Positions 12,388-43,442 of a DNA stretch of 46,254 nucleotides are shown piece by piece. The notes beneath the pieces are model-generated. The model worked only from the letters and a program-made list of their open reading frames with translations. It did no database searches and had not been told where the DNA came from. The translations under genes and the position numbers were made by a program. This DNA comes from Alphaproteobacteria bacterium (GTDB lineage: Bacteria > Pseudomonadota > Alphaproteobacteria > Rhizobiales > Devosiaceae), in assembly GCA_018820005.1 (NCBI GenBank), contig JAHJOS010000511.1, positions 1 to 46,254 on the forward strand, in the 5' to 3' direction. Position 1 is the first letter of the stretch. Each line of letters opens with the position of its first letter.

Positions 12388-12542
12388 CGACGTTCACCGA
12401 TGCGCTGTTGGGGCCCGACGCTGCGGTTTTGCGAGGATGGATGTGCGCTACCTGGCATATCTGCCAGCTAGTTTTCCGAGCCAAACCCCTTAGGCTGGTG
12501 ATGAGGCATCGCGCCTCATCAACGTGAAAGAGGGGTATCGCT

Positions 12543-14134: not shown

Positions 14135-14808
14135 CACACAGATGCCTAAGGTTCGCGCCATGGATCTTCCACGCATTGGCCGATGGTGAGCTGGTGCTGC
14201 TTGATGCCCGCTCGAACGAATTCGTCCTGTTCGACCGCGATGCATCGCGGGAACTCGTCGACGCCGTCGAGGGGCGAGCCATGAGCCCGCTTGTCGAGCG
14301 GCTGCTTGTCGAAGGAAGGCTGCAGCACGCCTCGTCGACGCCCAAGCTCAATCGGAGCCACGTGCCCGGAATTGATGATTTCACCTGGAGCGAGTCGGTC
14401 CGCTACAAGGCACGTCATCATGCCTCTTGTCCCTCTGGCCGCGAGGTGCTTGCGGCTGGCCTGACCCTTGCGAAGATGTGCGTTCTGCTCAAATGCGTGT
14501 CGCTTTTCCGTCTGCTAAAAAGCGGCCGGAACAGGCCCGTCAGCCAGGGCCCGGCAAAGGCAACGCTCGACCGAGAAATCTGCGCCCTGGTCCGTGCCGC
14601 ACGGTGGCTCCCATGCAAAGTCGCCTGCCTTGAATTCTCTCTCGCTCTACGCGAACGCCTGGCACGACACGGCGTCAATGCAACCGTCGAGATTGGCGTG
14701 CAGAAGTACAGCTTCATGGCACATGCCTGGGTGGAGGTAGATGGCCAGCCGTTAGGTGAGCCGGACCATGTCGCCCGATCTCTCCACCGCCTGCGGGGTA
14801 CCGAATGA
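14131..14808 (+). CDS. Lasso peptide B protein (fused RRE + leader peptidase)
   Basis: N-terminal PqqD-like ELVLLDARSNEF; C-terminal transglutaminase-like CLEFSLAL...AHAWVE; ATGA overlap with C. Confidence 0.9.
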   Translation: MTHRCLRFAPWIFHALADGELVLLDARSNEFVLFDRDASRELVDAVEGRAMSPLVERLLVEGRLQHASSTPKLNRSHVPGIDDFTWSESVRYKARHHASCPSGREVLAAGLTLAKMCVLLKCVSLFRLLKSGRNRPVSQGPAKATLDREICALVRAARWLPCKVACLEFSLALRERLARHGVNATVEIGVQKYSFMAHAWVEVDGQPLGEPDHVARSLHRLRGTE

Positions 14809-26143: not shown

Positions 26144-26653
26144 TCAAAGGCTCGCCGACACCTGCCCGCAAATACACGAAAGAACGGGGGTTACACTTTG
26201 AGCTTTTCCGGACTCCAAAAGATCTTTTAGTTTGGATATAACAATACTTACAGAATCACCTTTATTTATCGGTGCTTCGCTGCTTTTGGCTGTATCTATC
26301 TCTGCGACTTGCGCATCCGCCATGGTTATAATGGCAATTTTTTCCTGATTCTTTCCCTTAACCAATATTTCGGTGGAGCCTATAATTTTTTCAAGCTCTT
26401 CTGGACATTCGTCAGTAGCATAAAAGTCGTTTGCAGGTACGAATTCGACCTTTTCGACTCCCTGGTCACTGAGGTGTTGACGCAGCTGGGTACTTGTCCA
26501 TCCTATTTGGACACCCTCTATTTCGCCGCTTTGCAAATCTTCTTGCTTGTAAAACAATTTCTTCGAAAATTTTCCCACCCCAGTTTCAGGGCAAGCTGCG
26601 GAGATGCTCGGCACTAATAGGGCGAGCAGGATTGCAATTTTATTTATCGCCAT
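26144..26653 (-). CDS. Putative immunity protein (exported) of orphan cassette 3
   Basis: Overlaps the end of the toxin tip; N-terminal signal peptide; AT-rich; 3' end possibly truncated. Confidence 0.65.
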
Positions 26654-27200
26654 GATTTTGGCCCCAGGCTCCAGGAATATTTGGTGCAGTCCCACCGGCA
26701 TTCTCGATTATGTTATCAGCCGCTGTATTGGAATTGTTGCCTGTTGGAGGAATTCGATAGGGCCCCTGAGAGTAGTTATTTCCCGAACCAGTTACTGCCT
26801 TATCAAAATCACTCTGAGTGGTTCCAGCAGGTGGCCAAATAATTCTGTTTGTATCATTAGCCCCGGGATTTTCAAATGCATTTCTGTCGTTATTGTAAGT
26901 ATCACTTTCGTTCTGGGTCATTGGCCCATTAGGTTTCACAGGGCCGGTGCCTCCGCCAGCTAGTGAGTACTGGCTATCAATCACTTTCTTCGAATTCCCG
27001 CACTTATCGAACTCCCAATGCCAAACGATAACGGCGCAATGAACTGGTTTAGCCATACCAGGAGGTAGCAATGAAAGCGGCCGACAAGTCATGGTGACTT
27101 CGAGTCCGTATTGGTCAATATATTTGAGTGGGTTCCCCATCGCATACCCGTAGGTATTCAGTCCCCCCTTAAGTCCAATCGGATCGCTTTCGACGTATCG
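26640..27200 (-). pseudogene. Orphan Rhs toxin tip, cassette 3
   Basis: [33 protein letters not shown], then a unique C-terminal domain with HC, Y..P..GNNSNT motifs; no proper start. Confidence 0.85.
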
Positions 27201-27312
27201 TCCGCCTACCTGGCGTCAAAGCTACAAACCCACACAGCCAAAGCCCCGCCCGCCTGCCTTTCAAGCCAGCACAAATCCACAAAGCAGCACGCTAACCAGC
27301 CACACCCCCCAA
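27175..27312 (-). repeat. Cassette leader repeat, copy A
   Basis: About 80% identical by eye alignment to 29202-29335; fused to the RYVESDPIG codons. Confidence 0.85.
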
Positions 27313-27334
27313 GGAAGGTGGACGAGCACCTTCC

Positions 27335-27616
27335 TCATGCAACCGCAAGCACAATGACGAAGCAAGACAGTGAAATGATGGAAGTTACTGCCGCTCGAAT
27401 GTAGGCCCTGACAATTTGACCCGCTTCAAGCGACATGCCTTTTGATTCCGGGTTCTTATACAGAATAAATTGCAAAACAACTGACGAGTAAAATTCATAC
27501 CCCTTTATGTTTGCAGAGCCGAGTGCGTCCTCTAATTCAGGCTTGATGCTTAAGCACTTAATCAGTCCGTATATCCCTGCACATAGCGCAGCGGTTAAAA
27601 TGGCACCTAAAATCAT
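27335..27616 (-). CDS. Putative membrane immunity protein of orphan cassette 2
   Basis: 93 aa with hydrophobic N- and C-terminal segments; starts 2 nt after the toxin stop. Confidence 0.65.
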   Translation of the reverse strand: MILGAILTAALCAGIYGLIKCLSIKPELEDALGSANIKGYEFYSSVVLQFILYKNPESKGMSLEAGQIVRAYIRAAVTSIISLSCFVIVLAVA

Positions 27617-27618
27617 GA

Positions 27619-28227
27619 TTACTCCAGTGGTATATTCAAGCCTACGCCAGATCCGGTGACTTTAGCACCGATAGCTGGTCCGACTCCTACACGGCCGGAA
27701 ACGCCATTTGTCCCTTGAGTGGAAGATACATCAACGCTGATTGGTCCATATATCGGCACAGATAATCCAGCAGACGTCCCTACTGTAGTCATTTTTGAAT
27801 TTACTGAGCCTGCCGATCCGGACACTCCAGCCGTTACGGAAACGCCTATGCCTATGCCCGGAGCAATCGAGAAACTCAGATTATTCTGGCTTGGTGAGAC
27901 ACTCAAATCGCCTGAAATAACTACCGGGACTGGCCCGAGTTGCCCCCAAACTCCAAGTTTAACGTCCACGTTAGATAAGCCTCGCGTCGAGCCTGGAAGC
28001 GCAGAAGCCAAGCCCGATGGGCAGTATCCTTCAGGATATGGGATGCCTCCGTTGCAGATCGTTTGCCCATACTCATCCTTCCAACATTTGCTTAAGCCAT
28101 AGGGATCTACAAAGATCAAAGGGTTTCCCCCAACATATCCATATGTGTTCAAGCCACCCGCCAGCCCGATCGGATCACTTTCGACATAGCGCCCCGTCTC
28201 GGGGTCGTAATCGCGGAAGTAGTTGTA
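27619..28227 (-). pseudogene. Orphan Rhs toxin tip, cassette 2
   Basis: [45 protein letters not shown], then a Gly/Val/Ser-rich beta-like domain. Confidence 0.85.
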
Positions 28228-28288
28228 AACTAATTCACATCAGCACCTCTGACTCCCGAGCTACCTGGTCGCATCGGCAGCACATTAC

Positions 28289-28312
28289 ACGCTGCGCTCA
28301 ACCCATCCTACG
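28289..28312 (-). repeat. Partial REP-like element
   Basis: Minus strand CGTAGGATGGGTTGAGCGCAGCG resembles GTAG-type pseudomonad REPs but lacks the second arm. Confidence 0.35.
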
Positions 28313-28314
28313 AG

Positions 28315-28731
28315 CTAATCAGCTAACTCAAACTCTAGGGAGTCAATTTGCTCTAATATAAATCCGTCGTCGTAATACAATTCCACATAAGGCTCTCCAC
28401 TCATCATTGTGCCCGCTGTGTCTATTGACTTGATTTTAAGCTTAGCTTCCCTTGAAATGGATATGCTGCGTGCGTGACAGTATATGTTTCCAGCACGCTG
28501 TGTTTTGCAGAACTGCTTTTGAGAATTGTCTGGGAGGATGTAATAGGCAGTTACCTCATCCCAGAACTCCTTCTCCCCAATCTTGAGCTCATCCAAAACC
28601 ATGACTTCAAACAGAGTTTTCTCTACGCAAGAAAACTCCGAGGGATCATCTGAGTTTTTCGAAAAGCACTCCACCCATAGTCTGTTGCTGTATGTGGCCC
28701 AGAGATTTATTTTTTTGGTTAGGACTAACAT
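28315..28731 (-). CDS. Putative cytoplasmic immunity protein of orphan cassette 1
   Basis: Acidic 138-aa protein starting 1 nt after the toxin stop. Confidence 0.7.
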   Translation of the reverse strand: MLVLTKKINLWATYSNRLWVECFSKNSDDPSEFSCVEKTLFEVMVLDELKIGEKEFWDEVTAYYILPDNSQKQFCKTQRAGNIYCHARSISISREAKLKIKSIDTAGTMMSGEPYVELYYDDGFILEQIDSLEFELAD

Positions 28732-28732
28732 A

Positions 28733-29227
28733 TTACTGCCCTCCGGTTCGCTGGGCGCCAGGGCGCGTTGCGTCAATTACATCCTGCCTTCTTACTCGCT
28801 CCGCATGGTTTGAAACGCCTGTTCTAACACTTCCATCAGGGAGAACATTGCGGAAGTTTGGGTGTGTGTGCTCTGCCATCCCAGCGTGAGGCTTTGAGGG
28901 GGGAGTATGGACCTCTTTGAATACGTCACCTTTCGCGTTGCGAACTTTAGTGATTCCTTGAGGCAGTGTCCCGCTAATAGTGCGAGGGACAGGACAGTAA
29001 GCACGTTCTCCTTGTGGGTTTAGACCGCCCCTGAGCCCCCCAATTGGCCCCACGCCTCCAGTTGGGTTACAGATCAACCCCTCAAAACCAGGCGTACAAA
29101 CATTGCCACCCAACCCATCATCAATCATCAATCCAAATGGATCGATAAAGTTAACGGGATTGCCTTCTACGTACCCGTAAGTGTTAAGCCCACCATTGAG
29201 CCCAATCGGATCACTTTCGACGTATCG
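28733..29227 (-). pseudogene. Orphan Rhs toxin tip, cassette 1 (His-rich, Ntox24-like putative nuclease)
   Basis: [33 protein letters not shown], then EVH..KPHAG..HTH..N..PDG. Confidence 0.8.
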
Positions 29228-29487: not shown

Positions 29488-30516
29488 CTAGAGGTCTTCT
29501 TCGCTCTCTGCGCGCAGGGCGGCGAGCAAGGCGGCTTTATCCTGCAGCTTCGCCGGGTGGGTGGCGGTGTGGATTTCCTGCAGCTTGCGGATCGATACGT
29601 GGGTGTAGATCTGCGTGCTGTTCAGGTCGGCGTGGCCGAGCATGGCCTGGATGTACCGAATGTCCGCGCCATTCTCCAGCATGTGGGTGGCCATGGCGTG
29701 CCTGAGCAAGTGGCAGGAACCGGGCACGTTGATGCCGGCATGGCGCAGGAAGCGCTTCACCTTGTCGCCCACCTTGTTGTCGCGGAAGGGTTCGCCGTAA
29801 TCGTTGAGGAACAGGCACTGCTCGTTGATGTTGAGCAGCAGCTGCGGGCGCACATTATCCAGGTACGCCTGCAACCAGTGCCCTGCTCGCGCACCGAGCG
29901 GCAACAGACGGTCTTTGCCGCCCTTGCCATAGCGGACGAACAGGGTCATCTGGGCCAGCGAAATATCCGACAGCTGCAGAGCGCACAGCTCAGAGCGACG
30001 CAGGCCGGCGCTGTAGAACACTTCCAGAATGGCCCGATCACGCACACCGTAGGGCGTGCTCACGTCCGGCTGCAGCATCAGCTGCTCGATCTCGTCCAGC
30101 GTCAGTACCAATGGCAGGGAAGCCGTGTGCCGGGGCACAAACAGCTCCGAGGCGGGGTTGTAGAGCAGGTGATTTTCTTGCGTCAGCCATTTGAAGAACT
30201 GCCTAACGCTGGTGATGTAGTGGTTGCGGGTGCTGGGTGACAGCGCTTCGCCATTGGCCTGGCGGTAGTAGTACAGGTGCCTCTGGTAGCTCTCCAGAAT
30301 CGGCTTGGTCACGCTCTGCGGCCGGTCGATACCGAGCCCATCGCACCACCCAACAAAGCGCCGAATGTCGCTCTCGCGTCGGTGCAGGGTGCTGGGAGAG
30401 TAATTACGCACCTGCATGGTTTCGTTGTAGCGCAGCAGGTAGCCATAAAACCCGGTGTGCTCGATGGCCACCGGCAGGCGTTTGACCTTGATCGTACGTT
30501 TACGTTTGAGCGCCAT
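29488..30516 (-). CDS. XerC/XerD-like tyrosine recombinase
   Basis: Catalytic R (GLRRSE), K (GKGGK), HLLRH, LGH and Y (TQIYT) intact; N-terminal core-binding domain. Confidence 0.95.
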   Translation of the reverse strand: MALKRKRTIKVKRLPVAIEHTGFYGYLLRYNETMQVRNYSPSTLHRRESDIRRFVGWCDGLGIDRPQSVTKPILESYQRHLYYYRQANGEALSPSTRNHYITSVRQFFKWLTQENHLLYNPASELFVPRHTASLPLVLTLDEIEQLMLQPDVSTPYGVRDRAILEVFYSAGLRRSELCALQLSDISLAQMTLFVRYGKGGKDRLLPLGARAGHWLQAYLDNVRPQLLLNINEQCLFLNDYGEPFRDNKVGDKVKRFLRHAGINVPGSCHLLRHAMATHMLENGADIRYIQAMLGHADLNSTQIYTHVSIRKLQEIHTATHPAKLQDKAALLAALRAESEEDL

Positions 30517-30518
30517 GA

Positions 30519-33500
30519 TCACAACGCCTGATAGGTACTTTTCGGCGCACTCGCCGGCCATTCGTGGAAAGCCCCGGCGTGGCTGGCATCGGCCCTATTT
30601 GCAGGTGCCGCGATGACCCCGTTATGGCCCCGCGTTGGCCCCGCGAAGTGGGCCACCAGCCCCCGCGAAGTGCTCGTCATAGGCATGGGTTCGGACGCCT
30701 GGGCGTCGTGTGCGGGGTGGCTGATCAACTGCTCGACCGCCAGCAAACCCATCAAAAAGCTCCCACCGTCTTCGCCTTCGCCGCCGTACAACAGCTCGTA
30801 CTCGAACGATTGGCCACGCCCGCCGCGATGGGTCAGCAAGTACTCCATGTTGACCAAGCGCTGCACATGCACGCGCACCTGGGTTTCACTCCAGCCGCAG
30901 AGTTGGCGCACTTGCCGGCGGCTAAAGCGGAAGTCACGCTGCTCAATGCCCTGCGCTTTGGCCTCGGCGGTGACACGTTGCTTGATCAGGGTGAGCAACT
31001 GCCGGGTTTGCGGCGGCAGCTCGTCCAGGGTCTTGCCCAGCACCTCATGGGCCAGCCGATTGGCCAGGGCAATGTCCTCGCGCGTGGCCTCGATGTATTC
31101 CACCGGCTGACCGTGATGGTTCAGGGTTTTCACCGGGCGCTGGTACTGGTGCAGCAAGGCGATGCTGTCGATCAGCGTCAGGTACTTTTCATGGTCGCGG
31201 CGGGTGCGGGTCTTGTCGGCGAGAAAGGTCAGCTGATCGGCGAAGGGGTTGATCACGATCAGCGGTTTCAGCAGGCGCTGGGCGTTGCGGTGCAGCTGCA
31301 GAATGCGTTGTTTCTCCAGCTTGGTCTCCAGCCCCTGCAGGGTGCGTTTCACCCGCTGGATTTGATGGATGGCCTCGGTCTGCTCGCGCGATTCGTTCAC
31401 TGTGAGCACCAGGCAGCGGTTCATCAATTCTTCGTCGATGTCGATGGCGGTGGTGGTGAGGAACAACATCACTGGGCCTTCCACGCAGTAATCGCGGGTT
31501 ACCAGCTGGCCGCTGTTGTCGTCTTTGCCGGTGGAGGCAATCCGTACTTCGCCCTCGCTCTGCAGCAGCTTTAGCGCGTAGCTGGCGGTGTGTGCGCCTT
31601 CCTCTTCGGTGATGGCGAGGATCTTGTGTTTCAGCCGCGTCTCGCCCATGTAGAACAGGCTCTGCCCGGTCATGGCCGAATACTGCACGCGCTCGTCTTC
31701 GGGCATAAAGGCCAGCACCGCGTCCATCAACGATGACTTGCCGGCCGCGCTGGAACTCTGAATCACCACCGCTAGCGGTCGCTCCAGTTTGCGGCTGACG
31801 CCGGCGAGATAACCCACCAGCTTGTTGGTTTCCTCACCCACCACGCCGGCTGCTGTGAAGTCCGCCAGGATGCGTTCGGGCAAGACTGGATCGCGCAGCA
31901 GGGCCAGGGCAGCGGCGCGGGCCTCGCCGTCCATGCTGTCGACCGGGGATGACTCCACCGGACGCTGCTGGCGGAGCTGTTCCTGCTCCAGGGCCAGCAA
32001 CAGCTTGCCCAGGTCTTTCTTGATCACCTCGCCACTGACGCCCAGCTCGACACTGGCCTGGTTGGTAAACACCTGGCGCTGCTTGCTGCTGTACAGGTCA
32101 AGTTTGTCCATGTGGTAGTGCTCGTCGTTTTGCGCCAGCAGCTGGATTTTCAGTTGGTCGGCGCTGGCGTTCTTGTCCAGCCCGCGCACGCGGTACAGCC
32201 TGTCGCCAAACTGGGTGTACAGGCCATCGTCGCGGGCCTCTAGGGCAGCACCGGGTGCGGGCAAGGTCGGCATCGGCGTCGCCTGCGGGTCGATGGGGTT
32301 GTCCGGCATGGCCACGTCCGGCTCAGGCTGCGCAGTGACGGCGGCGACTTTAGCGGCTAAAGAAAAATCATCCGCCGCGGTGCTGATAACCGGGGCCGGC
32401 CCGCTGCCGTTGCCCATCCACTCAGCCTGGCGAAGCAACGCCGCCAGCGCCTTCTGCGCCGGCTGCATCTGGCAGGCGTACTGGTTGGCGTCCATGCCCT
32501 GGGGGAACAACACCCGGAACGCTTCGATGCCGTGCTGATTGAGCTGCTGCGCTACATCCTGAGCGGCCCGGTCGCCGGCCTCGTCGCGGTCGTAGGCAAT
32601 CAGCACCCGCTTTACGCCGATGCTGACCAAAGCCTGCAGCAGCTCGGCGGTGAAGCCGTTCACACCAAAACTCGCGGTCACCTGGCGAAAGCCTGCGCGC
32701 CAGAAGCTCAGCGCATCGATCAGCGACTCGCACAGAATCACCTCGCGGGCCGAAGCCAGCGCCGCCAGGTTGAACACCCCGACATGCGGCCCCGGCAGGT
32801 AGCTGTGTTTCGGCGTGCCTTCGCGCAGGTTATCCAGCAGCTTGCGGCCGTACACCTCGCCAATCACCCCGCTGGCGTCCATGCACGGAATCACCAGCGA
32901 GCCGTTGAAGTGTTCGTGCCCGGACTCGCGGTAGATGCCGATCTGTTGCAGGCGTGCACGCAACTCGGCACCGGTTTTACGGTTCTTCTGCGGCAGGCGC
33001 AGGCCCAGCGTGCGGTTGGCGTAGCCCAGTTTGAAGTGGCTGATCAGCTCGGCATCGTCCAGCCCGCGTTTCTGCAGATAGGCCAGGGCCTCGGGCGACT
33101 GCAGCAGGGTCTGGTGATAAAACTCGATTACCTCCTGCAGCAGTTGCTGTTCGTCACCCTGGACGGACACGGGCAGCGGCAGGCTCGGCACCGTGGATTT
33201 GCGCTGCGGCTCGGCAGCATCAGCGGCTAAAGAAAAAACCTGTCCGGTGTCGTTGGCCAGCCATTCCACTGCCGGGCGAAAGGCCAGGCTGCGGGTCTTC
33301 ATCACCCAATCGATTACCGAGCCGGCAGCACCACAACCGAAGCAGTGAAACAGGTTCGACTGCGGGCTGATCACGCACGACGGGGTTTTGTCGGCATGGA
33401 ACGGGCAGCACAGCGCAAAATCCTTGCCCTGCTTGGTCAGCACATGGCCCTGGCTCTCCACCAGCCGCAGCAGGGACACCTCGGCCTTGATCCGCTCGAT

Positions 33501-33524
33501 CACGTCATCAGCGATACGCGCCAT
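30519..33524 (-). CDS. CHC2 zinc finger-TOPRIM primase fused to a P-loop ATPase/helicase
   Basis: CPFH..CFGC zinc finger, CESLIDA and YDRD TOPRIM motifs, SSAAGKS Walker A; start MARIADD. Confidence 0.9.
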   Translation of the reverse strand: MARIADDVIERIKAEVSLLRLVESQGHVLTKQGKDFALCCPFHADKTPSCVISPQSNLFHCFGCGAAGSVIDWVMKTRSLAFRPAVEWLANDTGQVFSLAADAAEPQRKSTVPSLPLPVSVQGDEQQLLQEVIEFYHQTLLQSPEALAYLQKRGLDDAELISHFKLGYANRTLGLRLPQKNRKTGAELRARLQQIGIYRESGHEHFNGSLVIPCMDASGVIGEVYGRKLLDNLREGTPKHSYLPGPHVGVFNLAALASAREVILCESLIDALSFWRAGFRQVTASFGVNGFTAELLQALVSIGVKRVLIAYDRDEAGDRAAQDVAQQLNQHGIEAFRVLFPQGMDANQYACQMQPAQKALAALLRQAEWMGNGSGPAPVISTAADDFSLAAKVAAVTAQPEPDVAMPDNPIDPQATPMPTLPAPGAALEARDDGLYTQFGDRLYRVRGLDKNASADQLKIQLLAQNDEHYHMDKLDLYSSKQRQVFTNQASVELGVSGEVIKKDLGKLLLALEQEQLRQQRPVESSPVDSMDGEARAAALALLRDPVLPERILADFTAAGVVGEETNKLVGYLAGVSRKLERPLAVVIQSSSAAGKSSLMDAVLAFMPEDERVQYSAMTGQSLFYMGETRLKHKILAITEEEGAHTASYALKLLQSEGEVRIASTGKDDNSGQLVTRDYCVEGPVMLFLTTTAIDIDEELMNRCLVLTVNESREQTEAIHQIQRVKRTLQGLETKLEKQRILQLHRNAQRLLKPLIVINPFADQLTFLADKTRTRRDHEKYLTLIDSIALLHQYQRPVKTLNHHGQPVEYIEATREDIALANRLAHEVLGKTLDELPPQTRQLLTLIKQRVTAEAKAQGIEQRDFRFSRRQVRQLCGWSETQVRVHVQRLVNMEYLLTHRGGRGQSFEYELLYGGEGEDGGSFLMGLLAVEQLISHPAHDAQASEPMPMTSTSRGLVAHFAGPTRGHNGVIAAPANRADASHAGAFHEWPASAPKSTYQAL

Positions 33525-33581
33525 AAAACCCCCGGCTGGCAAAAACCTGTCAATAGCTTTGGAGTTAAAATAACCCCGTTG

Positions 33582-33610
33582 CAGAGTACTCTGTATCAGA
33601 GTACTGTCAA
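33582..33610 (-). promoter_or_regulatory. sigma70 promoter of the primase operon, overlapped by tandem palindromic operators
   Basis: TTGACA-16 bp-TACTCT on the minus strand; CAGAGTACTCTG (33582-33593) and CAGAGTACTGT (33597-33607). Confidence 0.7.
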
Positions 33611-33639
33611 CCGCTCGATCAAATCCAGGGGGTAGGGTT

Positions 33640-34029
33640 ATGCCATCAGCACTGCAGCGGATGAGCGCCATGACACCCGAAGACAAAGACTTCTATACAG
33701 ACTTGGGCCTGCGTATCGCCCAGGCCCGCAAAGCCCAAAACATCACTCAGCAGCAGATGGCCACGCTGCTCGGCATTTCCCAGCAAACCGTGGCGCATTA
33801 CGAAGTGGGTCGCTTGCGGATTTCCGTGGCCACGCTGCGGCAACTGGCCGAGGTGCTTAATTTCTCGGTCGATGAACTGGTGTACGGCATGGCGACTAAA
33901 GAAAAAGGCCGGCGCGGCCCCGACTCCAGGCTGCAACAGCAAATCGAGAAAGTTCGCCTGCTGCCCCGCACTAAGCAGCAGTTTGTGATGGACATGCTCG
34001 ATACGGTTATTCAGCAAACGGCGACATAA
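33640..34029 (+). CDS. XRE-family HTH repressor
   Basis: RIAQARKAQNITQQQMA..LGISQQTVAHYEVG HTH, KRGP-like tail; divergent from the primase; true start may be 33661 or 33670. Confidence 0.9.
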   Translation: MPSALQRMSAMTPEDKDFYTDLGLRIAQARKAQNITQQQMATLLGISQQTVAHYEVGRLRISVATLRQLAEVLNFSVDELVYGMATKEKGRRGPDSRLQQQIEKVRLLPRTKQQFVMDMLDTVIQQTAT

Positions 34030-34052
34030 AAACAGCCGCTGAAAGAAACAAC

Positions 34053-34078
34053 AAAAAGCCCAGCTATCAGCTGGGCTT
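34053..34078. terminator. Hairpin terminator after the XRE gene
   Basis: AAGCCCAGCT/AGCTGGGCTT stem; the T-tract is on the minus strand. Confidence 0.65.
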
Positions 34079-34324
34079 AGGGCGTTTATTTTTTAATTAA
34101 AAAGAACAGGCCCGCCGAAAATAACCAGATAAAGCCCTGCCAGATTCGCCCCCACCACCAAGATCGATCCAGGGTTAAGCCACGGCCTGGCGTTGCTTTT
34201 CTCTCTCCCCCGCAGCTCTGCTGCTGCCTGCCGACGACCTGCCAACCATCCTCAACAGCACCCCAAAAGCGTGGCTGATTGACGTCACCCTGAGCGCCAA
34301 TCGAAGCCGCCTGGTCAAAAAGTG

Positions 34325-34405
34325 GGCTGTAGCCTCGTGTGACTACAATCACCCCAGCATTTACGGGGCCTCCAGAGCATGTTGTAGCCGCGTGAGGCTA
34401 CAGCC
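34325..34405. repeat. Inverted pair of TGTAG-N10-CTACA palindromic boxes
   Basis: 34328-34347 and 34383-34402 are each palindromic and are inverted copies of one another. Confidence 0.75.
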
Positions 34406-34861: not shown

Positions 34862-35089
34862 TTAGTTGCCTTTTGCCAACGTATACGGCCGCATGGACTC
34901 ATGATCTTTATAAACAAACTGTTCGCAAATATCGACAAGTCCACCCATTGACTGCGCGACGCAAAGCTTCACCTCTAAAAACTCCTCTTCGCTTGTGTTC
35001 TCCTTAATATCTCTAAGAAGTTTTCCAAGAATGCTTATGCACTCTTGGGAGGCATTAAAAATAATTTCTGCTGATTTTTTATCCATCAC
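34862..35089 (-). CDS. Putative cognate immunity protein of the full-length Rhs
   Basis: 75-aa AT-rich helical ORF overlapping the Rhs stop codon. Confidence 0.75.
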   Translation of the reverse strand: MMDKKSAEIIFNASQECISILGKLLRDIKENTSEEEFLEVKLCVAQSMGGLVDICEQFVYKDHESMRPYTLAKGN

Positions 35090-37767
35090 TTAACTCCCAA
35101 GCAACCGCGAGAATCTAAACAATCTGAGTAGCACTTCTGAAAATTCATAGACTGTAGGTCTGTATCGGGAAGACCAGCGCTACATAGCGCCGCACACTCG
35201 GTTCTTGCGCGCTTGCAGCGGTCTGGATCGTCCTCATCTGGGGTGCAAGCCTCAACTGCTTTAGTAATTAGCGGCTGCAACCAAGGGTTGATATACCTGT
35301 CAGTTAAAATGAAGCTACCAACACCGACAGCCCCCACCGCCGCTGCCGCACAGGCACTACCACCAGTTGCAGCGCAGATAGAGCCAGCGCTTGGCAATGT
35401 TACCTTTAATACCTCGCCCACCGTGGCTACCTGCAGCCCCATCGGATCGGTGTAGCGCACCGGGTTGCCATGGACATACCCGTAGGTATTCAGACCACCA
35501 GCCAACCCAATCGGATCGCTTTCGACGTAGCGCCCCGTCTCGGGGTCATAATCGCGGAAGTAGTTGTAATGCAGCCCGCTTTCGTCGTCGTAGTACTGAC
35601 CGGGGAACCGGAGGTTGATGGTGGCAGTTCCATCAGCCGCACCGACGCCGAAGGCATCGGATTTCCATCGCCAGACTTCATCACCGGACTGGTTGGTGGC
35701 TAGCCTTGGGGTGTTGAGGTGGTCGGCATGCAGATAGAACGCGTTGCTGCTGGCGATGCCACCCTCAGCATCGTAGGTCAGGGTGATGCCACCTAAAGGC
35801 AGGCTGTCCAGCCACAGAAAGAACTGGCTGCTAAGCTTGGCGCCAGTGGGGCTGTACCGGGTTTCGCCAAGGAGCTGGCCGTTCGGGCCGTAAAGAAAGG
35901 TTGTTGTCGCTGTGCCGGTGATCTTGTTGGTTCGCTGGCCCAATGCGTTGTAGCGGTATTGCGCGATCACATTGCTGCCGATGTTCACCTGAGCCAATCG
36001 GCCCTGAGCATCGTACTCAAAGTTTCGGTTATTGCTGTATTGCGTCAGGCTGCCAGTGGCATCGGTGGTTACGGCCAGTCCGTCGATGCTTACAAGCCGA
36101 TTGCTGTCGCTCGCATAGCTGAGGTCGGTGACCACGCTGCCCATGGGCTGGCCTTCGCTCAGGCCGATGAGCGCTTTGCTGGTCCGGTTGCCCACCGCGT
36201 CGTAGCCATACTGTAAGCGCTGGTTGCCTTCATCTTCACGGATCAGCCGATCGAGCGCGTCATAACCGTAGAGCAGATCACCGAACAGGCCGCTCTCCAG
36301 GCTCTGGATATTGCTGTTGGCGTCGTAGCCATAATTGGCCTGCCAAGGTCCGACGCTTTGCTGGGTGAGTCGATAGTCCTGATCATAGGTGCGTGAAAGA
36401 TTGATGCCGTTGGCCCAGGTAAGACTCTTCAGCGGCCCGAACGGCAGATAGCTCAGGTCGCTGGCAAAGGCAGCAGGCTGTTCATCGATAACGATGTCGA
36501 CCTCTCCAACCTGCCCGGCAGCATTGCGTTGGTATTGCACGGCAAAGCCTGCCGGGTAATCGATGCGCGTGAGCTGACCAGCGCCATCGTAGCTGTACTG
36601 CAGCGTGTCATAGATATCGCTACCCACCACCTCGAGTGAGCGAAGCTGCTGCACCAGGTTGCCGCGTGCGTCGTAGCGATAGCCAAGCACTCCACTGGCA
36701 TCTTGCACGGTGGTCAGCCGGCCAACCCCGTGATTGCCGTCGGCGGTCATGTCGTAGTGGTACTGAACGTTGAGCGCCGGGTTGGCGGGGTACGTTTTAC
36801 TGGTCAGACGATTCAGGGCGTCGTAGCTGTAGCTCGTGACCACGCCGCGGGCGTCGGTCTTGCGGATCACGTTGCCGGCCGCGTCATGTATAAATGTGGC
36901 CGTGCCGCTGTCTGGACTGACTAGTTGAGTAAGATTACCTACCCCATCGTACCGGTACTGGGTGGTAACGCCTCTCGGGTCGCTTACCTGGGTGAGGTTA
37001 TCCTGAGCATCATAACCAAGGGCAGTAACGCCATTGAGCGGGTCGGTGCTGGTGACCAAGCGATCCAGTGCATCGTAGCTGTTGGTGGTGCTGTGTTGCT
37101 TGGGGGTGGTACCAACCGCGAGATTATCGTTCAGGTCGTAGCCGTACTGCCTGGTCTGGCCTTGTGCACCGACGGCGCGCAGCAGGCGTCCGAGCTCGTC
37201 ATATACCCAGGTCTGCTGCTGGGTCAGTGCACCGGTGGCATCATTGAGACGCTGAGCGGTGCGGTTGCCCATGAGGTCGTAGTCATATTCAACCTTCTCG
37301 CCCAAACTGTTGGTAACCGCTTTCAGACGACGGGCACCGTCCCAGGTGTACTGCAGCCAGCTCCCGTCACCGCGGGTCACCTTAGCGATCTGCCCAATGG
37401 CGTCGTGCTCGAAGCTCGTGCTGCTGCCGGCAGTGCTTGTGGAACTCAGCCAGCCCTGGGGCGTGTAGGTCAGGGTGGTCGTCACACCGTTGGCATCTAT
37501 CAGGCTCTGCGGGTTGCCGTAGGTGTCGAAGTTCGAGAGCTGTGTGACATGGCCAAGGGCATTGGCTACCTGTGTCAGGTGGCCTTGGGCGTCATAGGTG
37601 TAGGTGGTGACATCTGACACGTCGCTGCGAGGGCCGTCGGCCGTCTCGATCAGTCCGAGGCTGTTGTAGGTGTAGCTCCAGCTGCGCTCAAGCGCTTGGA
37701 CGCTTGGCACACCCAGTGCCGTCGCGAGCGTTAGCGCAAGTAGACTTATGCGATGCGATGATTTCAT
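35086..37767 (-). CDS. Rhs protein, C-terminal half (own signal peptide, YD repeats, Rhs core, Cys-rich toxin tip)
   Basis: MKSSHRISLLALTLATALGVPSVQA signal peptide; YD repeats; [35 protein letters not shown]. Confidence 0.93.
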   Translation of the reverse strand: MKSSHRISLLALTLATALGVPSVQALERSWSYTYNSLGLIETADGPRSDVSDVTTYTYDAQGHLTQVANALGHVTQLSNFDTYGNPQSLIDANGVTTTLTYTPQGWLSSTSTAGSSTSFEHDAIGQIAKVTRGDGSWLQYTWDGARRLKAVTNSLGEKVEYDYDLMGNRTAQRLNDATGALTQQQTWVYDELGRLLRAVGAQGQTRQYGYDLNDNLAVGTTPKQHSTTNSYDALDRLVTSTDPLNGVTALGYDAQDNLTQVSDPRGVTTQYRYDGVGNLTQLVSPDSGTATFIHDAAGNVIRKTDARGVVTSYSYDALNRLTSKTYPANPALNVQYHYDMTADGNHGVGRLTTVQDASGVLGYRYDARGNLVQQLRSLEVVGSDIYDTLQYSYDGAGQLTRIDYPAGFAVQYQRNAAGQVGEVDIVIDEQPAAFASDLSYLPFGPLKSLTWANGINLSRTYDQDYRLTQQSVGPWQANYGYDANSNIQSLESGLFGDLLYGYDALDRLIREDEGNQRLQYGYDAVGNRTSKALIGLSEGQPMGSVVTDLSYASDSNRLVSIDGLAVTTDATGSLTQYSNNRNFEYDAQGRLAQVNIGSNVIAQYRYNALGQRTNKITGTATTTFLYGPNGQLLGETRYSPTGAKLSSQFFLWLDSLPLGGITLTYDAEGGIASSNAFYLHADHLNTPRLATNQSGDEVWRWKSDAFGVGAADGTATINLRFPGQYYDDESGLHYNYFRDYDPETGRYVESDPIGLAGGLNTYGYVHGNPVRYTDPMGLQVATVGEVLKVTLPSAGSICAATGGSACAAAAVGAVGVGSFILTDRYINPWLQPLITKAVEACTPDEDDPDRCKRARTECAALCSAGLPDTDLQSMNFQKCYSDCLDSRGCLGVK

Positions 37768-37784
37768 TGGTCAGTTCCTTCTGA

Positions 37785-39419
37785 TCAGCGTTCGGTAAGG
37801 GTCTGGCTAAGCGGATTTCCGTGTGCGTCGTAATTGAACTGCACGATGCGCTCGGGCTCGGTGATGGTGACGGGTCTGAAGAGCGTTGGGTGCCACTCGG
37901 TGATGATCGTCCGGGCCTGTGGCGTACCGGCTGCTTCGGTCCGACTGATCTCTAGGCCGCGATCGTTGTAGATGAATGTCGTCTGATTACCCTTGTTGTC
38001 GGTGCGGGTCTTGATTAAACCGCGGCTGTCATAGGTGAACGTGGAATTGCTGCTAGGACAGTTGGCCGATGCTGCTCCTGAGAGCGAGGTGATGCGCTTG
38101 GCGCCCGCGATGGTTTGGAAGCTATAGGTGGCTTTCTTGCCGAGTGGATTGGTCAGTGTTGTCGAGTTGCTACCGTAGGCGAACTGGTAGCGGTCGGCAC
38201 CACCGGCATGCTCGCTCTTGGTAGCACGTCCCTGTGCATCGTAAGTCCAGGTGGCGTAACGCACACCGCGCTCGTCGGTAATGCCGGTCAGCCAGCCGCC
38301 TTCACGTGCGTCTTCGTAATGGTAGGTGCGAGAAAGGGCCTGCCCATTCTGGGTTCGCGTCGCCTTGGTCAGACGGCCGGCCGTACTGTAGGTGTAGCTC
38401 ACCTGCAGGTCGTCAACCATCAGCGTGGCCAACCGTTGAGCTGCGTTGAACGTCAGCGTCATCGCATGGCCGAGTGAGTCAGTGACCACGATGGCGTTGG
38501 CGCTGTACGAAAGAATCTCGTATGTGCCGTTCGCACGGTCGATACGGGTCAGTTGTCCTGCGCTGTCGAAATGCAGGTGCTCGTTTCGCGGGGAGTCGTA
38601 GCGCCAACCTTGAGTCGTCTTTTCAAGACGCCCTAGCTCTTTGGGTGATGCGGCCACGGTAGTACCGCTTACGCTGAACAGGCTTTGGCGTCCATCGGCG
38701 TCAATGAGTAGCGCCTTGGTGGGAGAAAGCTTGAGTCGCGCGGCGTAAGTATGCGTCCAACTGGTCGTTCTGCTGTTGTAGTAGCGTATGAAGCGCATTT
38801 CGCTACCGGAACGACCGGAATAGTCTATTTCAGTCTGGAATTTGTTTCCGTAAGCCACGTCGACCGGGTTACCAGCGCTCAGGCTTGGGGAACCCTGTCC
38901 AGCAAGTAAGGGTGGCGCTGACGGTACAGGACAGGCACCAGGCAGGTCCGGTGCACCAACCCCCGGAACGTCGGGGCAGAGCAGCTCCGCGGGTCGGTTG
39001 TAAAAGACCGGGCCGGCAAAGACTCCATAATGCGTTTGCTTGGCAACGGCGAAGTTTCTCGCGGAGACGCCATCGACCGAGCCGGTGAAGTTGTCGTGGA
39101 GCAGGATTGCGTGTGTCTTGCAGTCGTTGGTGAACACCCGCTTCATGTTTGCATTGCTCGATTTCAGCGTTTCGAGCATCTGGTCCGGTGTGTACCACGC
39201 GCTACTATCAAGCCACTTGATCACCTTGCCTCCGGAACATTGCAAGTTCGCGATCTGGTACAGGTACTGACCCGAGCCATCTGGTGGCTGAGATGCGAAG
39301 ACTTCTGTTCCGAAATAGCTAACGCCACCTGTCGTGCAGCTAGCGGCGGCGAGGGCGGATTGGTTTAGAAATGCGGTGCTAACAAGGGCGAGAGCAAGCG
39401 TGCTGGAGAAACGATCCAT
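37785..39419 (-). CDS. Rhs protein, N-terminal half (signal peptide, DUF6531-like domain, YD repeats)
   Basis: Signal peptide ending ALA; GNPVDVAYGNK..FIRYYNS..WTHTY; YD repeats; no Rhs core. Confidence 0.88.
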   Translation of the reverse strand: MDRFSSTLALALVSTAFLNQSALAAASCTTGGVSYFGTEVFASQPPDGSGQYLYQIANLQCSGGKVIKWLDSSAWYTPDQMLETLKSSNANMKRVFTNDCKTHAILLHDNFTGSVDGVSARNFAVAKQTHYGVFAGPVFYNRPAELLCPDVPGVGAPDLPGACPVPSAPPLLAGQGSPSLSAGNPVDVAYGNKFQTEIDYSGRSGSEMRFIRYYNSRTTSWTHTYAARLKLSPTKALLIDADGRQSLFSVSGTTVAASPKELGRLEKTTQGWRYDSPRNEHLHFDSAGQLTRIDRANGTYEILSYSANAIVVTDSLGHAMTLTFNAAQRLATLMVDDLQVSYTYSTAGRLTKATRTQNGQALSRTYHYEDAREGGWLTGITDERGVRYATWTYDAQGRATKSEHAGGADRYQFAYGSNSTTLTNPLGKKATYSFQTIAGAKRITSLSGAASANCPSSNSTFTYDSRGLIKTRTDNKGNQTTFIYNDRGLEISRTEAAGTPQARTIITEWHPTLFRPVTITEPERIVQFNYDAHGNPLSQTLTER

Positions 39420-39534: not shown

Positions 39535-40131
39535 CTAAAGCGGGTTTTTGTTAATGCGAACTAGAGGCTCTAAACGTAGCTCCGTTGCACTTTCGGAGCT
39601 CGTAGGGCGGAGTTTCTTCAGATAAAAATCCGTAAGGTAGGCATACCGTACGACCTGTCCTACTGGCTTAGTTGGAGCTTTCATTGCGTCGGGAAAATAA
39701 AGTGGATCAAGCGATCCGTCGCGCGACAGGACGACATAGCTGGGTTGCACCTCTTCCAGAATCGCACCAGACACGATCTGGTCACCTAGTTTGAAGAGGC
39801 GAGGGGGACGGCCCGAAACCATAATGATGGCCGAAGATCGTTCGCTCATCGGGTGCACGAAGCTACCCACTAATGTCATCGGAAGCGGAGATCGTTCGTG
39901 AACAGGCTGTGTCTGCTGTCGATGTTCGCCGAACAGATTTTCCCGATACTTGACAGGCGCTTTCGTGGGCTCAAGCACTGCCTGTTCGCGGGCAGGCTCT
40001 TTGAGCAGAACCTCGCTAAGTTGCTGCCATTGTCTGTAAATATTCACGCTCACTCCCATCGCTACGACAAGCGACACCGCCCACGGCAGGGCGCGATGTC
40101 TGAGGATCGTGAGAATCAAGCGAGCTTTCAT
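39535..40131 (-). CDS. Type II secretion GspC/XcpP-like protein
   Basis: N-terminal TM helix, then LPMTLVG..SSAII..FKLGDQI..ILEEVQPSYVVLSRDG..LYF (HR domain); start could be 40164. Confidence 0.75.
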   Translation of the reverse strand: MKARLILTILRHRALPWAVSLVVAMGVSVNIYRQWQQLSEVLLKEPAREQAVLEPTKAPVKYRENLFGEHRQQTQPVHERSPLPMTLVGSFVHPMSERSSAIIMVSGRPPRLFKLGDQIVSGAILEEVQPSYVVLSRDGSLDPLYFPDAMKAPTKPVGQVVRYAYLTDFYLKKLRPTSSESATELRLEPLVRINKNPL

Positions 40132-40513
40132 GTGGGGCTGCAATCCAAATACTGCACAGCTCATTTTTCACGATTCTGAGAAAAGGTCGAACAGTTTGCG
40201 GCCCAGACTTGATGTGGTGCGCAAAGCAGTGGCGGCATAGAGCCGTGCTGCCCTTTCTGCTTTCCTACCAGAAAAAATTTGCGAACACGTCGTGGAGCGA
40301 CCAGGCGCGGATGGTACCGGCGCGGCAGGGCGTCGCTGACCAAGCGTAGGGCAAGAGGGCTGTATCGCTTTGGAACAGCCCGACTCGCGTCCAGACGAAT
40401 ACCCCGCATTACGGTCGCCGAGCCAACTGCGTCAGCCGACCTCAGGGAGGGCATGATGGACGCCCGAGGGGACGAGACGGCCGTCGGGAGACGCCCTTGC
40501 GCTTCACGCGCAT

Positions 40514-42379
40514 TCAACTAGGCCCAGCCACCAACCCAGCCCTGAAATGCTCAGCCGTCTCCGCATCCGTGCAGTACAGGTAGCATCCCTTCATCCCGCG
40601 CGTCATGAGCGTACGGTAGGTATTCTTGATGATCAGATCCGTCTCTTGTCTAGCCAGATCCGGATGCGTCTTCATGAGCTTCTTATAGCCGCGGATCGAC
40701 CGGTCCTGTTTGTCACGCCGATCTGGAGAGGTAATGACCTCGCCGTTGCGCACGATCAGGTCGGGCCCGATGATCACGCCGATGTAATCGACCTCAAGCC
40801 CCTGGCAGGTATGGATGCACCCGACCTGCTCGATGGATTCCTCGGCGATGATCCACAGGCTTCCGTCCTGGCTCAGGTTCCACTGCCGGCGGTAGTCACC
40901 AATGACGATGTCGTCGGCCAGCGGATCCTTCTTGCTGCGCCACGGCCAGCAGTAGCCCGCCACCACCCGTGCCTTGTTCTCCCCGTTACGCGCTTCGATC
41001 GCTTCATGCAGCGCCTCAGGCGTATCGAACACCCGAAAGTCGTACTCGCTTGCATCGAGCCGCTCGTTGGCCGTCAGCCTGATGTCGAGCACTTGATCGA
41101 GCCAAGCGAGATACCCATCCGAGCCGCTGCAACGAAACTGTGAAGCCAGGTTGTACTCCTCAACCACCGCACCCTTGGCCTCGGCAAACGCCCGGATCGC
41201 CTGCTTGCTACCAATGTCGCTCAGGGTGACGCGCTGGTCTTCATCGATGAAGAAGACCGTGCACTTGGCGGCACCAATGAGCTCCTTGATTTGGTTGTCA
41301 CCGAGGTTGGCGTACAGGCCGCTCTTCTCGTTAAGGCGGTGGGCCTCGTCGACGATGAGCATGTCGAAGATATTCGGGTCGGCATCCACAAACGCACCGG
41401 AGCCGGTGAACATGTGCGAGAAGCGGGTGCGCGTCATCGAGCCGACCAGCTTCGTCTCATAGACCTTGCGGGGCGCGGCGTTCTTGGACACGTATTTGCC
41501 CACCAGTCCCAAGGAGGTGAGATGCACCAGCAGGTTGATGGCCAGCACCGTCTTGCCGGTCCCAGGCCCGCCTTCGACGATGACCACCCGCGACTGGGCG
41601 GAGGAGGCTGCCTTGGCTGCGGCAATGGCCGCCTCGTAGACCTCTTTCTGATCATCGATCAGCACGAACTCAGGCTTCTCGGCCAGCAACCCTTTAAGTG
41701 AATCCGCCAGTGCCTTGGACGGCCTGATCTTGCCGTTGGCAAGCTCGTACAGCACCGCCTTGTCATCACCGTACTTGATGTACTTCTTGATGAAGGCGCG
41801 CAGCTGCTCGAGCTCATCCTTGCCCTTGAAAAAGAGCGGCGCCTTGTCGATGTAAGGCTGGTAATGGGCCGCGTCGATGACGCCGTCACGCACGTAGTTG
41901 TGCAGGTACGCGCATGGCCTGACCGAGATGCTCTGGTCGTATACCGCCTCGTTGAAACCCTCCGGCAAAGAGGCGTAGGACCAGGCCTGATAGGACGGAT
42001 GAACTGTCTCCCTCAAACCCTTGCCCAGGGCGGTGACAACGATCGCATCCTTGGCCGTGACCTTGGCTGTACTCCATTGCTTGAGCTCGACCAGCACGGC
42101 GTTCTTGCCGCCGGCATCGTCCCGGCCGGTCAAGGTAAAGTCGATGCGCTTGGACGACTGCGGGATGTGGAGCTCGATGGCAAGCCCGGTGTCGCCGGGC
42201 AACCCCTCGTCTCGCAGCACCTTGGCCATGTAGCCGAGCGATCCCTTCCAGGAGTCGATCTCCGAACGCCCGACCCGCTTGCCGGTGCGAGCGGTGAAGT
42301 GGGCGAGGATCACGTCCTCGATGTCGTCATTGTCGGTGTCGTGCAGGAACTGCTGCTTGGTTGCTTCGTAAACGATCAC
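40514..42379 (-). CDS. DUF2075-like nuclease-helicase
   Basis: N-terminal E..RID..VELKQW (PD-(D/E)xK-like), GGPGTGKT, IVDEAH, QFRC, CIHTCQGLE and YRTLMTRG motifs. Confidence 0.85.
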   Translation of the reverse strand: MIVYEATKQQFLHDTDNDDIEDVILAHFTARTGKRVGRSEIDSWKGSLGYMAKVLRDEGLPGDTGLAIELHIPQSSKRIDFTLTGRDDAGGKNAVLVELKQWSTAKVTAKDAIVVTALGKGLRETVHPSYQAWSYASLPEGFNEAVYDQSISVRPCAYLHNYVRDGVIDAAHYQPYIDKAPLFFKGKDELEQLRAFIKKYIKYGDDKAVLYELANGKIRPSKALADSLKGLLAEKPEFVLIDDQKEVYEAAIAAAKAASSAQSRVVIVEGGPGTGKTVLAINLLVHLTSLGLVGKYVSKNAAPRKVYETKLVGSMTRTRFSHMFTGSGAFVDADPNIFDMLIVDEAHRLNEKSGLYANLGDNQIKELIGAAKCTVFFIDEDQRVTLSDIGSKQAIRAFAEAKGAVVEEYNLASQFRCSGSDGYLAWLDQVLDIRLTANERLDASEYDFRVFDTPEALHEAIEARNGENKARVVAGYCWPWRSKKDPLADDIVIGDYRRQWNLSQDGSLWIIAEESIEQVGCIHTCQGLEVDYIGVIIGPDLIVRNGEVITSPDRRDKQDRSIRGYKKLMKTHPDLARQETDLIIKNTYRTLMTRGMKGCYLYCTDAETAEHFRAGLVAGPS

Positions 42380-42399
42380 GCGGTCTTCCTTGGCCGAGT

Positions 42400-42783
42400 C
42401 TAGAGCTGGTCGTATTTCTTGCTCGTGTTGCGCGCTTTGTCCACCGGGTACTTCTCGCCATTGCGCTTGAGCTTGTCCTGCACGGCCTCATCCAGATCGA
42501 CACCCAGCACATCAGCCAGACGAACCAGGTACATCAGGACATCGGCCAACTCGTCTCGCACCGCCTGGGCGGTTTCAGATGTCTGCGCCGCCGTGATCGA
42601 CTGCTCTTCAGTCATCCACTGGAAGATCTCGGAGAGCTCACCGGTTTCCCCGGTCAGGGCCATGGTCAGGTTCTTGGGCGAATGAAACTGCGCCCAGTTG
42701 CGCGCATCGGCAAAGGCCTCGAGGGCTTCGGCAAGTCGCGTCGTGTCAACGAGCGCAGGGGAGAGCGGGGCATCAGTGGACAC
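42400..42783 (-). CDS. MazG-like nucleotide pyrophosphohydrolase
   Basis: RNWAQFHSPKNL..ETGELSEIFQW..DELADV..KYP; GTG start with AAGGA RBS. Confidence 0.9.
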   Translation of the reverse strand: MSTDAPLSPALVDTTRLAEALEAFADARNWAQFHSPKNLTMALTGETGELSEIFQWMTEEQSITAAQTSETAQAVRDELADVLMYLVRLADVLGVDLDEAVQDKLKRNGEKYPVDKARNTSKKYDQL

Positions 42784-43442
42784 GAGAGGATCCTTGAAGA
42801 GAAAACGCCGGAAGATCATACGTGAGCGCTGTGCGATTGTGATGCTGCGCCAAGCCTGCCCAGTGGCAAGCCAGGCCCCCCATCGGCATCTGCCCGATGC
42901 CAGTAAGCTGAGTTCAATAAATGGGTCGTGAATCGGCCGGCACCGTCGGTTCAGAATCGCAGGCTAAGCCCCGCATCATTGATCCCGCCTACGTGCTTGC
43001 CCAAACAAGCCACAACGGAGCGTCGATACTGCGGTCGTTTGAGGATGCCGACGAGCGCTTTCTGGACCATTGCTGACGGTCCAGCTAGGTCAAGGGCCGC
43101 GCCCCAAGCTCGTCGGACAAGCGCTTCACCTGTCCGGCGAACGGAGGTACGGGCGCAGCGCACCCTTGAACCCACTCCGACACCAGCACTCTTCGCCAGG
43201 GATGAGAGGGTGCTCCACCCCCTATCATCCCTGGCCTCGCCGAGAGTACCCGAAGGGCCGCCGGAGGCGCTGTTTGCGCTGATCAGTCGATGACTAGGGC
43301 GTTGGGCTTTGTTCACTCAGTTGTCTGTAGAGGCGGCTGCAGCTTTGAAGGCTTTGTCCTCGCAAGTGCTAAGGCTTGTTGCTGCTTAAGCTATCCGCGC
43401 GTAACTGTCATATCGGACGAAAGCGTACGTCTGGCGTACTGC

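Follow-up and report, generated by a model that had tools for sequence, protein, structure and literature searches.

Canonical Rhs proteins are single chains. Those delivered by type VI secretion (T6SS), such as RhsP (8h8a), RhsA (7q97), Rhs1 (7pq5), the S. bongori protein (8qjb) and Tse15, fold in the cytoplasm, are composed of a plug, a β-cocoon, a DPxG autoprotease and a variable tip, and are loaded via PAAR, VgrG and Eag proteins. An Rhs protein that acts without a T6SS in a Gram-negative bacterium has been described in Xanthomonas perforans, where the activity of Bcn-A was found in the supernatant and was lost in an xpsD mutant defective in type II secretion (T2SS) (PMC7259588). The available text of that report gives dependence on the T2SS and no route of entry into the target cell.

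The locus described here lies in a window (the whole stretch of DNA analysed) of 46,254 nucleotides from contig JAHJOS010000511.1. It encodes the plug, cocoon, autoprotease and variable tip of the T6SS Rhs effectors but differs from them in having two signal-peptide chains, no PAAR and a Cys-rich head and tip. The coordinates of the two genes, A and B, and of associated features are given in Table 1. Pfam and NCBIfam profiles located DUF6531 (residues 183–248) and RHS repeats in A, and RHS repeats and the Rhs-associated core (Rhs_assc_core, TIGR03696, 85 bits, residues 704–778) in B. The YD-repeat cage with its DUF6531 plug is complete only when A and B are taken together. A ends in YDAHGNPLSQTLTER followed by the stop codon, and B begins with MKSSHRISLLALTLATALGVPSVQA, continues with LERSWSYTY and ends in DGPRSDV. 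Both N-termini include a short n-region, a hydrophobic core and an A-x-A-type site, as called by our own heuristic (hydrophobicity, charge and A-x-A site) rather than by SignalP, and neither contains a twin-arginine motif. The first-pass annotation had proposed an Rhs cage divided between two genes with a signal peptide on each, separated by 17 bp with a ribosome-binding site; the two open reading frames, their signal-like starts and the spacer, which holds AGAAGGA, were all confirmed.

Table 1. Features of the A/B locus and its surroundings, with positions in the 46,254-nt window.
Feature	Position	Strand	Description
Gene A	37785..39419	-	544 aa; signal peptide and variable head, then DUF6531 plug and initial third of the Rhs cage
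Gene B	35086..37767	-	893 aa; signal peptide and remaining cage, with the Rhs protease core and the toxin tip
Spacer A/B (split point)	37768..37784	-	17 bp, holds ribosome-binding site AGAAGGA
Predicted Sec signal peptide of A	39348..39419	-	residues 1–24; sequence and heuristic
Predicted Sec signal peptide of B	37693..37767	-	residues 1–25; sequence and heuristic
Head domain and linker of A	38880..39347	-	residues 25–180; Cys 28, 61, 100, 148, 163
DUF6531 plug	38676..38873	-	residues 183–248; Pfam; candidate N-terminal cleavage site GN↓PVDVAYGN
Cys454 of A	38058..38060	-	sole invariant Cys of the A cage part (alignment)
Aspartyl autoprotease motif of B	35437..35520	-	DPxG...DPxG (DPIG...DPMG); TIGR03696 and sequence
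Toxin tip of B	35086..35436	-	116 aa, 9 Cys, Gly/Ala-rich hydrophobic start
Candidate immunity gene	34862..35089	-	67–75 aa, no signal peptide, overlaps the B stop
Orphan GspC/XcpP-like gene	39535..40164	-	209 aa with a TM-like stretch at its N-terminus; lies 115 bp upstream of A
Three orphan Rhs core-end/toxin modules	28733-29227, 27619-28233, 26640-27203 (span 26144..29227)	-	3 Cys per tip
Small genes downstream of orphan modules	28315-28776, 26144-26701	-	

The candidate cleavage site of A was compared with the motifs in the available texts of PMC11461821 and PMC12704120. In the A protein of the window, the catalytic Glu of the N-terminal cleavage motif PVxxxxGE is replaced by Asn. WapA of S. 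suis is cut at a GN-type motif, according to the text available (PMC12704120), and cleavage of A at GN↓PVDVAYGN is uncertain.

Among the best 120 homologues of B, 104 begin at the split, 10 are fused and six were left unclassified by the regular expression used. A signal-peptide-like start was found by the heuristic in 97 of the 104 split forms. From the other side, 115 of the best 120 A homologues, in a search limited to proteins of 299–952 aa, end within three residues of the same point. The two genes form an adjacent pair at 23 of the 29 loci examined, with a gap of 15–19 nt in 19 of these 23. In distant fused relatives, the break corresponds to a β-hairpin turn (K/R-T-L-T-D, turn, R-T-W-T-Y-T-Y), and the break falls at the same turn in pseudomonads and in other Gammaproteobacteria. 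Within one Pseudomonas genus, 23 of the 401 genomes sampled have gene A, which was also present on plasmids of the P. syringae group and of Spartinivicinus and, at ~31% identity, in two distant gammaproteobacterial MAGs. A metagenome scan with one distant query returned two uninformative loci. Another signal-peptide Rhs family (L076 and L077), in which DUF6531 of A had no match, was excluded from the member counts.

The existence of fused relatives, and the origin of the contig from a fragmented bin, could be taken to mean that A and B are one gene broken by a nonsense mutation, an assembly error or read-through. However, the 17-nt spacer shifts the reading frame, and the break point, the second signal peptide and its ribosome-binding site are conserved across genera. 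A broken gene was therefore rejected as having a negligible probability, and the earlier view of an evolved split stands. The split A/B pair is a real, conserved variant of Rhs polymorphic toxins that consists of two chains and is variable at both ends.

Fused close relatives, which the first-pass annotation had expected to speak against an evolved split, do exist among the best 120 B homologues, but three of the 10 nest in the split clade. In a quick, unrooted tree of 41 B-part sequences, from which two rows without the anchor motif were dropped, the split forms of pseudomonads and Spartinivicinus made up one group (SH-aLRT 97) with the three fused proteins inside. AU tests, with the long-branch sequence L005 left out, rejected monophyly of the fused forms (p-AU 3e-76), and a single origin of all splits was neither shown nor rejected (p-AU 0.30). 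As canonical Rhs proteins are single chains, this tree is read as fission followed by occasional re-fusion. Re-fusion supports rather than refutes the complementation of the two halves.

Association of the halves was examined by modelling A181–544 with B27–660. The complex scored 0.83 and the best of three controls 0.00; 116 of 157 solved complexes, and 2 of 215 mismatched pairs, attained this mark. Contacts agreed between runs to at least 97%, with a pLDDT of at least 88 for the partners. In the model, B27–34 pairs with A535–544, and contacts continue all along the following turns of the spiral. Residues 184–541 of the A model could be superimposed on residues 360–722 of S. bongori Rhs (Z 19.0, rmsd 4.7, 334 aligned) and residues 153–518 of RhsP (Z 18.1, rmsd 3.7, 321 aligned). 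Since the modelled complex is similar to solved Rhs cages, its score may reflect this likeness. The model agrees with the heterodimeric shell proposed from the first reading, and the prediction is that A and B make up a single cage in the periplasm through pairing of their strands.

The signal peptide of A is followed by 100–160 variable residues, and 37 A genes gave 22 head clusters. Sixteen of 22 heads of relatives matched the N-terminus (first ~110 positions) of PHROG 815/4352 at E<0.01, and one head found both a 7.3-kb Pseudomonas phage (E 3e-8) and Pf PA0724 (E 0.5). A profile of the relatives' heads aligned with residues 30–125 of PA0724/CoaA (probability 97%, E 7e-11). In the best 120 A homologues, 57 heads are CoaA-like, 38 are of the window's type and 25 are neither, these being truncated, Ig-like by eye, or others. 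The commonest A head is, as judged by sequence comparison, homologous to the N-terminal domain of Pf-phage CoaA; the profile of such heads gave no match in the PDB. CoaA is reported to bind type IV pili and then TolA (PMC7047154, available text). Its first part is the most variable, and N1 binds TolA in coliphages and CTX, although Pf may use another co-receptor, as stated in the available text of PMC7549136. From the homology, entry with a CoaA-like head would borrow the pilus/TolA route.

The window's own A has a head from a family confined to A proteins, which made up 36 of 36 matches in a search of longer proteins. This head showed no match to CoaA or CoaA-like heads in PHROGs, in profile–profile comparison or in a tblastn search of phages. 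Its place is taken in other A genes by a CoaA-like domain, and it is this position that points to a role as an aiming domain. Within the full-length A model, residues 31–120 mostly have a pLDDT of 84–92; modelled alone, the head reached a pLDDT of 36, too low for fold comparison. Fold searches with the whole A model were filled by matches to the cage and did not place the head, and an Atlas search gave no usable match for a homologue. That the head could not be placed does not argue for a new fold.

Two to four A genes are present at seven loci, with paralogue heads 2–37% and cores 41–89% alike; at one of these (L021), four tandem A genes are 84–89% alike in the core and 26–37% in the head. 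The split would let one B pair with several such heads. Alternatively, a single A may serve each B at a time, the extra copies being silent cassettes swapped by recombination between cores, with no combinatorial assembly. This would suit the high likeness of tandem cores (up to 89%), the placement of some A genes downstream of B among orphan modules (L028, L032) and the single A of the window. However, the extra A genes mostly have their full length and a signal-like start of their own, unlike the truncated orphan tips, and the paralogue cores at L028 (41–61% alike) would be poor substrates for recombination. We therefore regard silent cassettes as improbable and retain pairing of one B with several heads as the preferred reading.

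The other end of the pair is also diverse, as 108 tips gave 69 clusters, and some tips of relatives carry HNH, Ntox33/37/44 domains. The tip of the window's B matched no Pfam family. At L135, a B gene whose Cys-rich tail resembles that of the window's B is followed by a weak homologue of the candidate immunity gene (30%, E 0.005). Among two further records (P0232 and P0216), a split B that is 73% alike in the N-terminal region is labelled Cystobacter fuscus, as a result of either transfer or contamination, and one tip matched Pfam serum amyloid A (E 2e-29). As the window's tip has no toxin family and YD shells also serve adhesion (teneurin matches were obtained), the A–B complex might be an adhesin, or might act on eukaryotes or phages, for example by blocking pili with a CoaA-like head. 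Hypervariable tips in which nuclease-type domains occur, an intact protease motif, small downstream genes and orphan modules make up instead the pattern of polymorphic toxins, and a role outside bacterial killing is considered very unlikely.

Cysteine counts show a parity pattern in the two proteins. Toxin tips have an odd number in 116 of 116 cases, after 4 of 120 rows under 50 aa or with no core match were dropped. Heads are odd in 82 of 86, after 34 of 120 rows with no signal-like start or a short N-terminus were dropped, and the other four have, by eye, an extra Cys in the signal peptide. The cage part of A has exactly one Cys in 86 of 86, and the B cage has none in 96 of 99. Two control sets gave odd counts less often, in 28 of 53 for large YD proteins and in 20 of 30 for Rhs proteins from elsewhere in Pseudomonas. 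A search of representatives, dominated by long repeat proteins, served only as a parity control. Kin are not independent in these counts, and the Pseudomonas control is itself skewed to odd (20/30, all with one Cys). In that control set (L101–L130), all 30 tips have at least one Cys and 20 exactly one. An odd head, one cage Cys and an odd tip are found also in the fused forms of IncC plasmids, a Vibrio plasmid and locus L131, the last with its only mature head Cys directly before DUF6531. At locus L003, the heads and the tip are even and the cage lacks Cys, and several fused relatives have even heads with odd tips.

Taken at the level of sequence, this parity suggests an inter-domain disulfide, or tether, whose formation would need the periplasm. 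A bond between the tip and Cys163 of the linker is favoured because the segment preceding DUF6531 aligns with the N-terminal segments of solved Rhs proteins and because there is a precedent in Tse15, whose N-domain has been proposed to pull unfolded toxin from the cage (PMC11461821, available text). A bond between the head and Cys454 fits equally in many cases. An odd head, Cys454 and an odd tip leave one thiol unpaired, and together with the even heads of fused relatives this means that the partner of the tip cysteine is not fixed.

With regard to export, a search of 12 ORFs in the 27.6–42.4 kb region gave no PAAR, VgrG or EagR; to the left of 26 kb, the ORFs were viewed by eye. As a PAAR/VgrG-type N-terminus and an adjacent VgrG or EagR are absent from the ORFs searched and both chains have signal-like starts, nothing points to delivery by a T6SS, in agreement with the first-pass annotation. 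No T6SS sheath gene turned up in 8 of the 27 carrier genomes, of which several are incomplete.

The orphan GspC-like protein encoded upstream of A matched Pfam T2SSC (PF11356) with 51 bits (cut-off 27) and a profile of 29 canonical XcpP proteins with E 4e-31, in keeping with the N-terminal membrane anchor and HR domain of the GspC/XcpP family, and is a candidate substrate-specific T2SS adaptor. Canonical GspC/XcpP copies adjoin xcpQ. A close relative (G892) has gspC, A and B in the same order (82, 88 and 92% identity) and a second, canonical xcpP-xcpQ pair 1.5 Mb away. Using the XcpP profile, a GspC-like gene, truncated in one case, was found at 7 of 34 split loci and none nearby at the other 27. 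The seven Rhs-linked GspC sequences fall on one side of a branch (SH-aLRT 93, with a long-branch warning). The orphan gene beside A, with its recurrence at 7 of 34 loci, points to type II secretion. At locus L131 (1197-15590, G410:C213), a fused signal-peptide Rhs relative is the first gene, followed by a small gene and a complete-looking T2SS cluster (gspK-like, E, F, C, D). Other traits of T2SS substrates are the Sec-type signal peptides (by the heuristic) and the Cys-rich heads and tips; in our judgement, a cage of ~150 kDa is large for a secretin.

A gspD gene was detected in 25 of 27 carriers and not found in G339 and G541, the latter a 5.7-Mb contig. No clear enrichment was seen, with gspD in 21 of 23 carriers and in 82 of 101 genomes genus-wide. 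These findings, the 27 loci lacking a nearby GspC-like gene and the carriage of fused relatives by broad-host IncC plasmids are in keeping with a two-chain periplasmic Rhs toxin released by vesicles or lysis, or held at the surface for contact-dependent delivery, with the GspC-like gene as an optional part or passenger. On the other hand, the Rhs-linked GspC sequences form a group of their own, a T2SS cluster is headed by a fused relative, and Bcn-A provides a precedent for T2SS dependence (PMC7259588, available text). Release by such other means is thus thought unlikely, and export by the T2SS remains the preferred reading.

Orphan gspC genes occur in other settings as well, either beside a secretin paralogue and an apparent secreted protease or beside another signal-peptide Rhs. 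A mini-cluster of a gspD paralogue, a gene for a small protein, a secreted protease-like gene and an orphan gspC recurs at nine loci (L071–L075, L083, L084, L086 and L087) and is a candidate substrate-dedicated T2SS add-on. At L076 (1747-10191) and L077, a signal-peptide Rhs lies by an orphan gspC-gspD pair, and the tips are also odd in Cys.

The contig was binned with an alphaproteobacterium, in which gene A was absent from 108 genomes of the same genus; the one family match was a long fused ORF. The named proteins that cluster with A and with the adjoining helicase belong to Stutzerimonas and Pseudomonas. The tetranucleotide distance of the contig from the bin is only mildly high (rank 27 of 243). 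The only secretin match of the bin, which is 79% complete and probably not the true host, is of Tad type as we read it, and we take the bin's RecA and Tad genes to be alphaproteobacterial. The contig is probably a mis-binned, Stutzerimonas-like pseudomonad contig, and G892 was used as a stand-in for the host genome. Another contig of the bin (G000:C254; that of the window is G000:C484) has a match to PHROG 815, which is Pf CoaA-like (E 1.5e-29).

Between the immunity gene and the orphan tip modules (29488-34352) there are genes for an XerC-like recombinase, a CHC2/Toprim primase-helicase (1055 aa) and an XRE regulator, which make up an integrative element inside the Rhs locus. Upstream of gspC (40514-42819) lie genes for a Schlafen-group-3 helicase and, by eye, a MazG-like pyrophosphatase. 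At L069, the same Rhs locus is flanked by apparent CBASS-type and other defence genes. These surroundings suggest a defence island. An asparagine-synthetase-like gene, a transglutaminase-like B2 gene and an ABC transporter (12524-16484, by eye) represent a probable lasso-peptide cluster.

We lean towards interpreting A/B as an Rhs bacteriocin that is assembled in the periplasm, exported by the T2SS and doubly polymorphic, with aim and payload on separate genes. Both chains would cross the inner membrane by Sec and join there into one cage, and the folded complex would leave by the T2SS, probably helped by the adjacent orphan GspC. By analogy with known Rhs proteins, the DPxG protease would cleave off the tip of B, which would stay enclosed in the cage. 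A would supply the plug together with a variable head, the likely means of binding to the target cell. A spare Cys of the tip probably bonds to a spare Cys of A, either Cys163 or Cys454, so that the disulfide-tethered head could draw the toxin out and reduction would free it. A broader proposal can be made only tentatively, namely that of a contact-independent class of doubly polymorphic bacteriocins with separately exported half-cages, one toxin-loaded and the other bearing any of several heads, joined in the periplasm, a head–toxin disulfide, a T2SS retuned by a dedicated GspC, and entry into targets through receptor-binding domains shared with filamentous phages, of which the IncC rhs product would be the single-chain form.

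For Rhs action without a T6SS, the A–B family offers testable answers: the orphan GspC bears on export, the variable phage-like heads on targeting and the cysteine parity on release. It would also provide a direct handle on whether GspC paralogues set the choice of T2SS substrate. The natural split at a hairpin, with re-fusion, indicates that two chains can make up an Rhs cocoon, the aiming part and the payload then lying on different genes.

Bcn-A is similar to the A–B pair, by its description, in being an Rhs protein of about the summed size of A and B (1,398 aa) with an immunity gene, but is one chain and needs ORF2/ORF4; the available text reports no split, head arrays or phage-like head (PMC7259588). 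WapA-CT1 of Streptococcus suis is also a Sec-exported Rhs whose shell ends as two chains (Rhs1 and Rhs2), is cut before PINLNTGN, which resembles PVDVAYGN of A, and has a dedicated export helper encoded nearby. It differs in being Gram-positive, the product of one gene (3,158 aa), split by autoproteolysis and sortase-anchored (PMC12704120, available text). In P. aeruginosa, XphA/XqhA is an orphan GspC/GspD pair whose GspC paralogue is encoded away from the xcp cluster and functions as part of a hybrid Xcp machine; there GspC comes with a secretin, whereas the window's GspC stands alone beside the Rhs pair (PMC6567927, available text).

A weak structural and core match was obtained between A–B and the B–C cocoon of Tc/ABC toxins (YenB-YenC2, 4igl; TcdB2-TccC3), though the break point differs. 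That cocoon is likewise a YD shell made from two gene products with the toxin on the second chain. Tc/ABC toxins are much larger, dock on a TcA injector, act on insects and are not known to carry Sec signals. Membership in this family was rejected, as the SpvB/propeller domains are absent from A, B and the scanned neighbours (Pfam) and the core matches are weak. Pf CoaA/G3P (PA0724; AY324828) shares its N-terminal ~100 residues with the commonest A head by homology, but is a virion protein, and the window's own head is not detectably related to it. Each ingredient of the system has a precedent in Bcn-A, WapA, Tc B–C, XphA or CoaA. In a search of open full text, no account of their combination was found, nor one of the split, of the phage-like head or of the parity.

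Single-chain counterparts are the rhs gene of IncC plasmids and other fused forms (L095, L097, L098 and L131), which have a signal peptide, a head, DUF6531 and the same hairpin junction, but consist of one chain and are 33–39% identical. The IncC gene (L098:4075-8328, also L097) encodes a fused signal-peptide relative with the same cysteine pattern. No functional study of it was found in the literature. The core of A is matched by 880 plasmid records, 779 of them conjugative. The A–B family would also provide a hypothesis for an unstudied rhs gene carried by hundreds of IncC plasmids.
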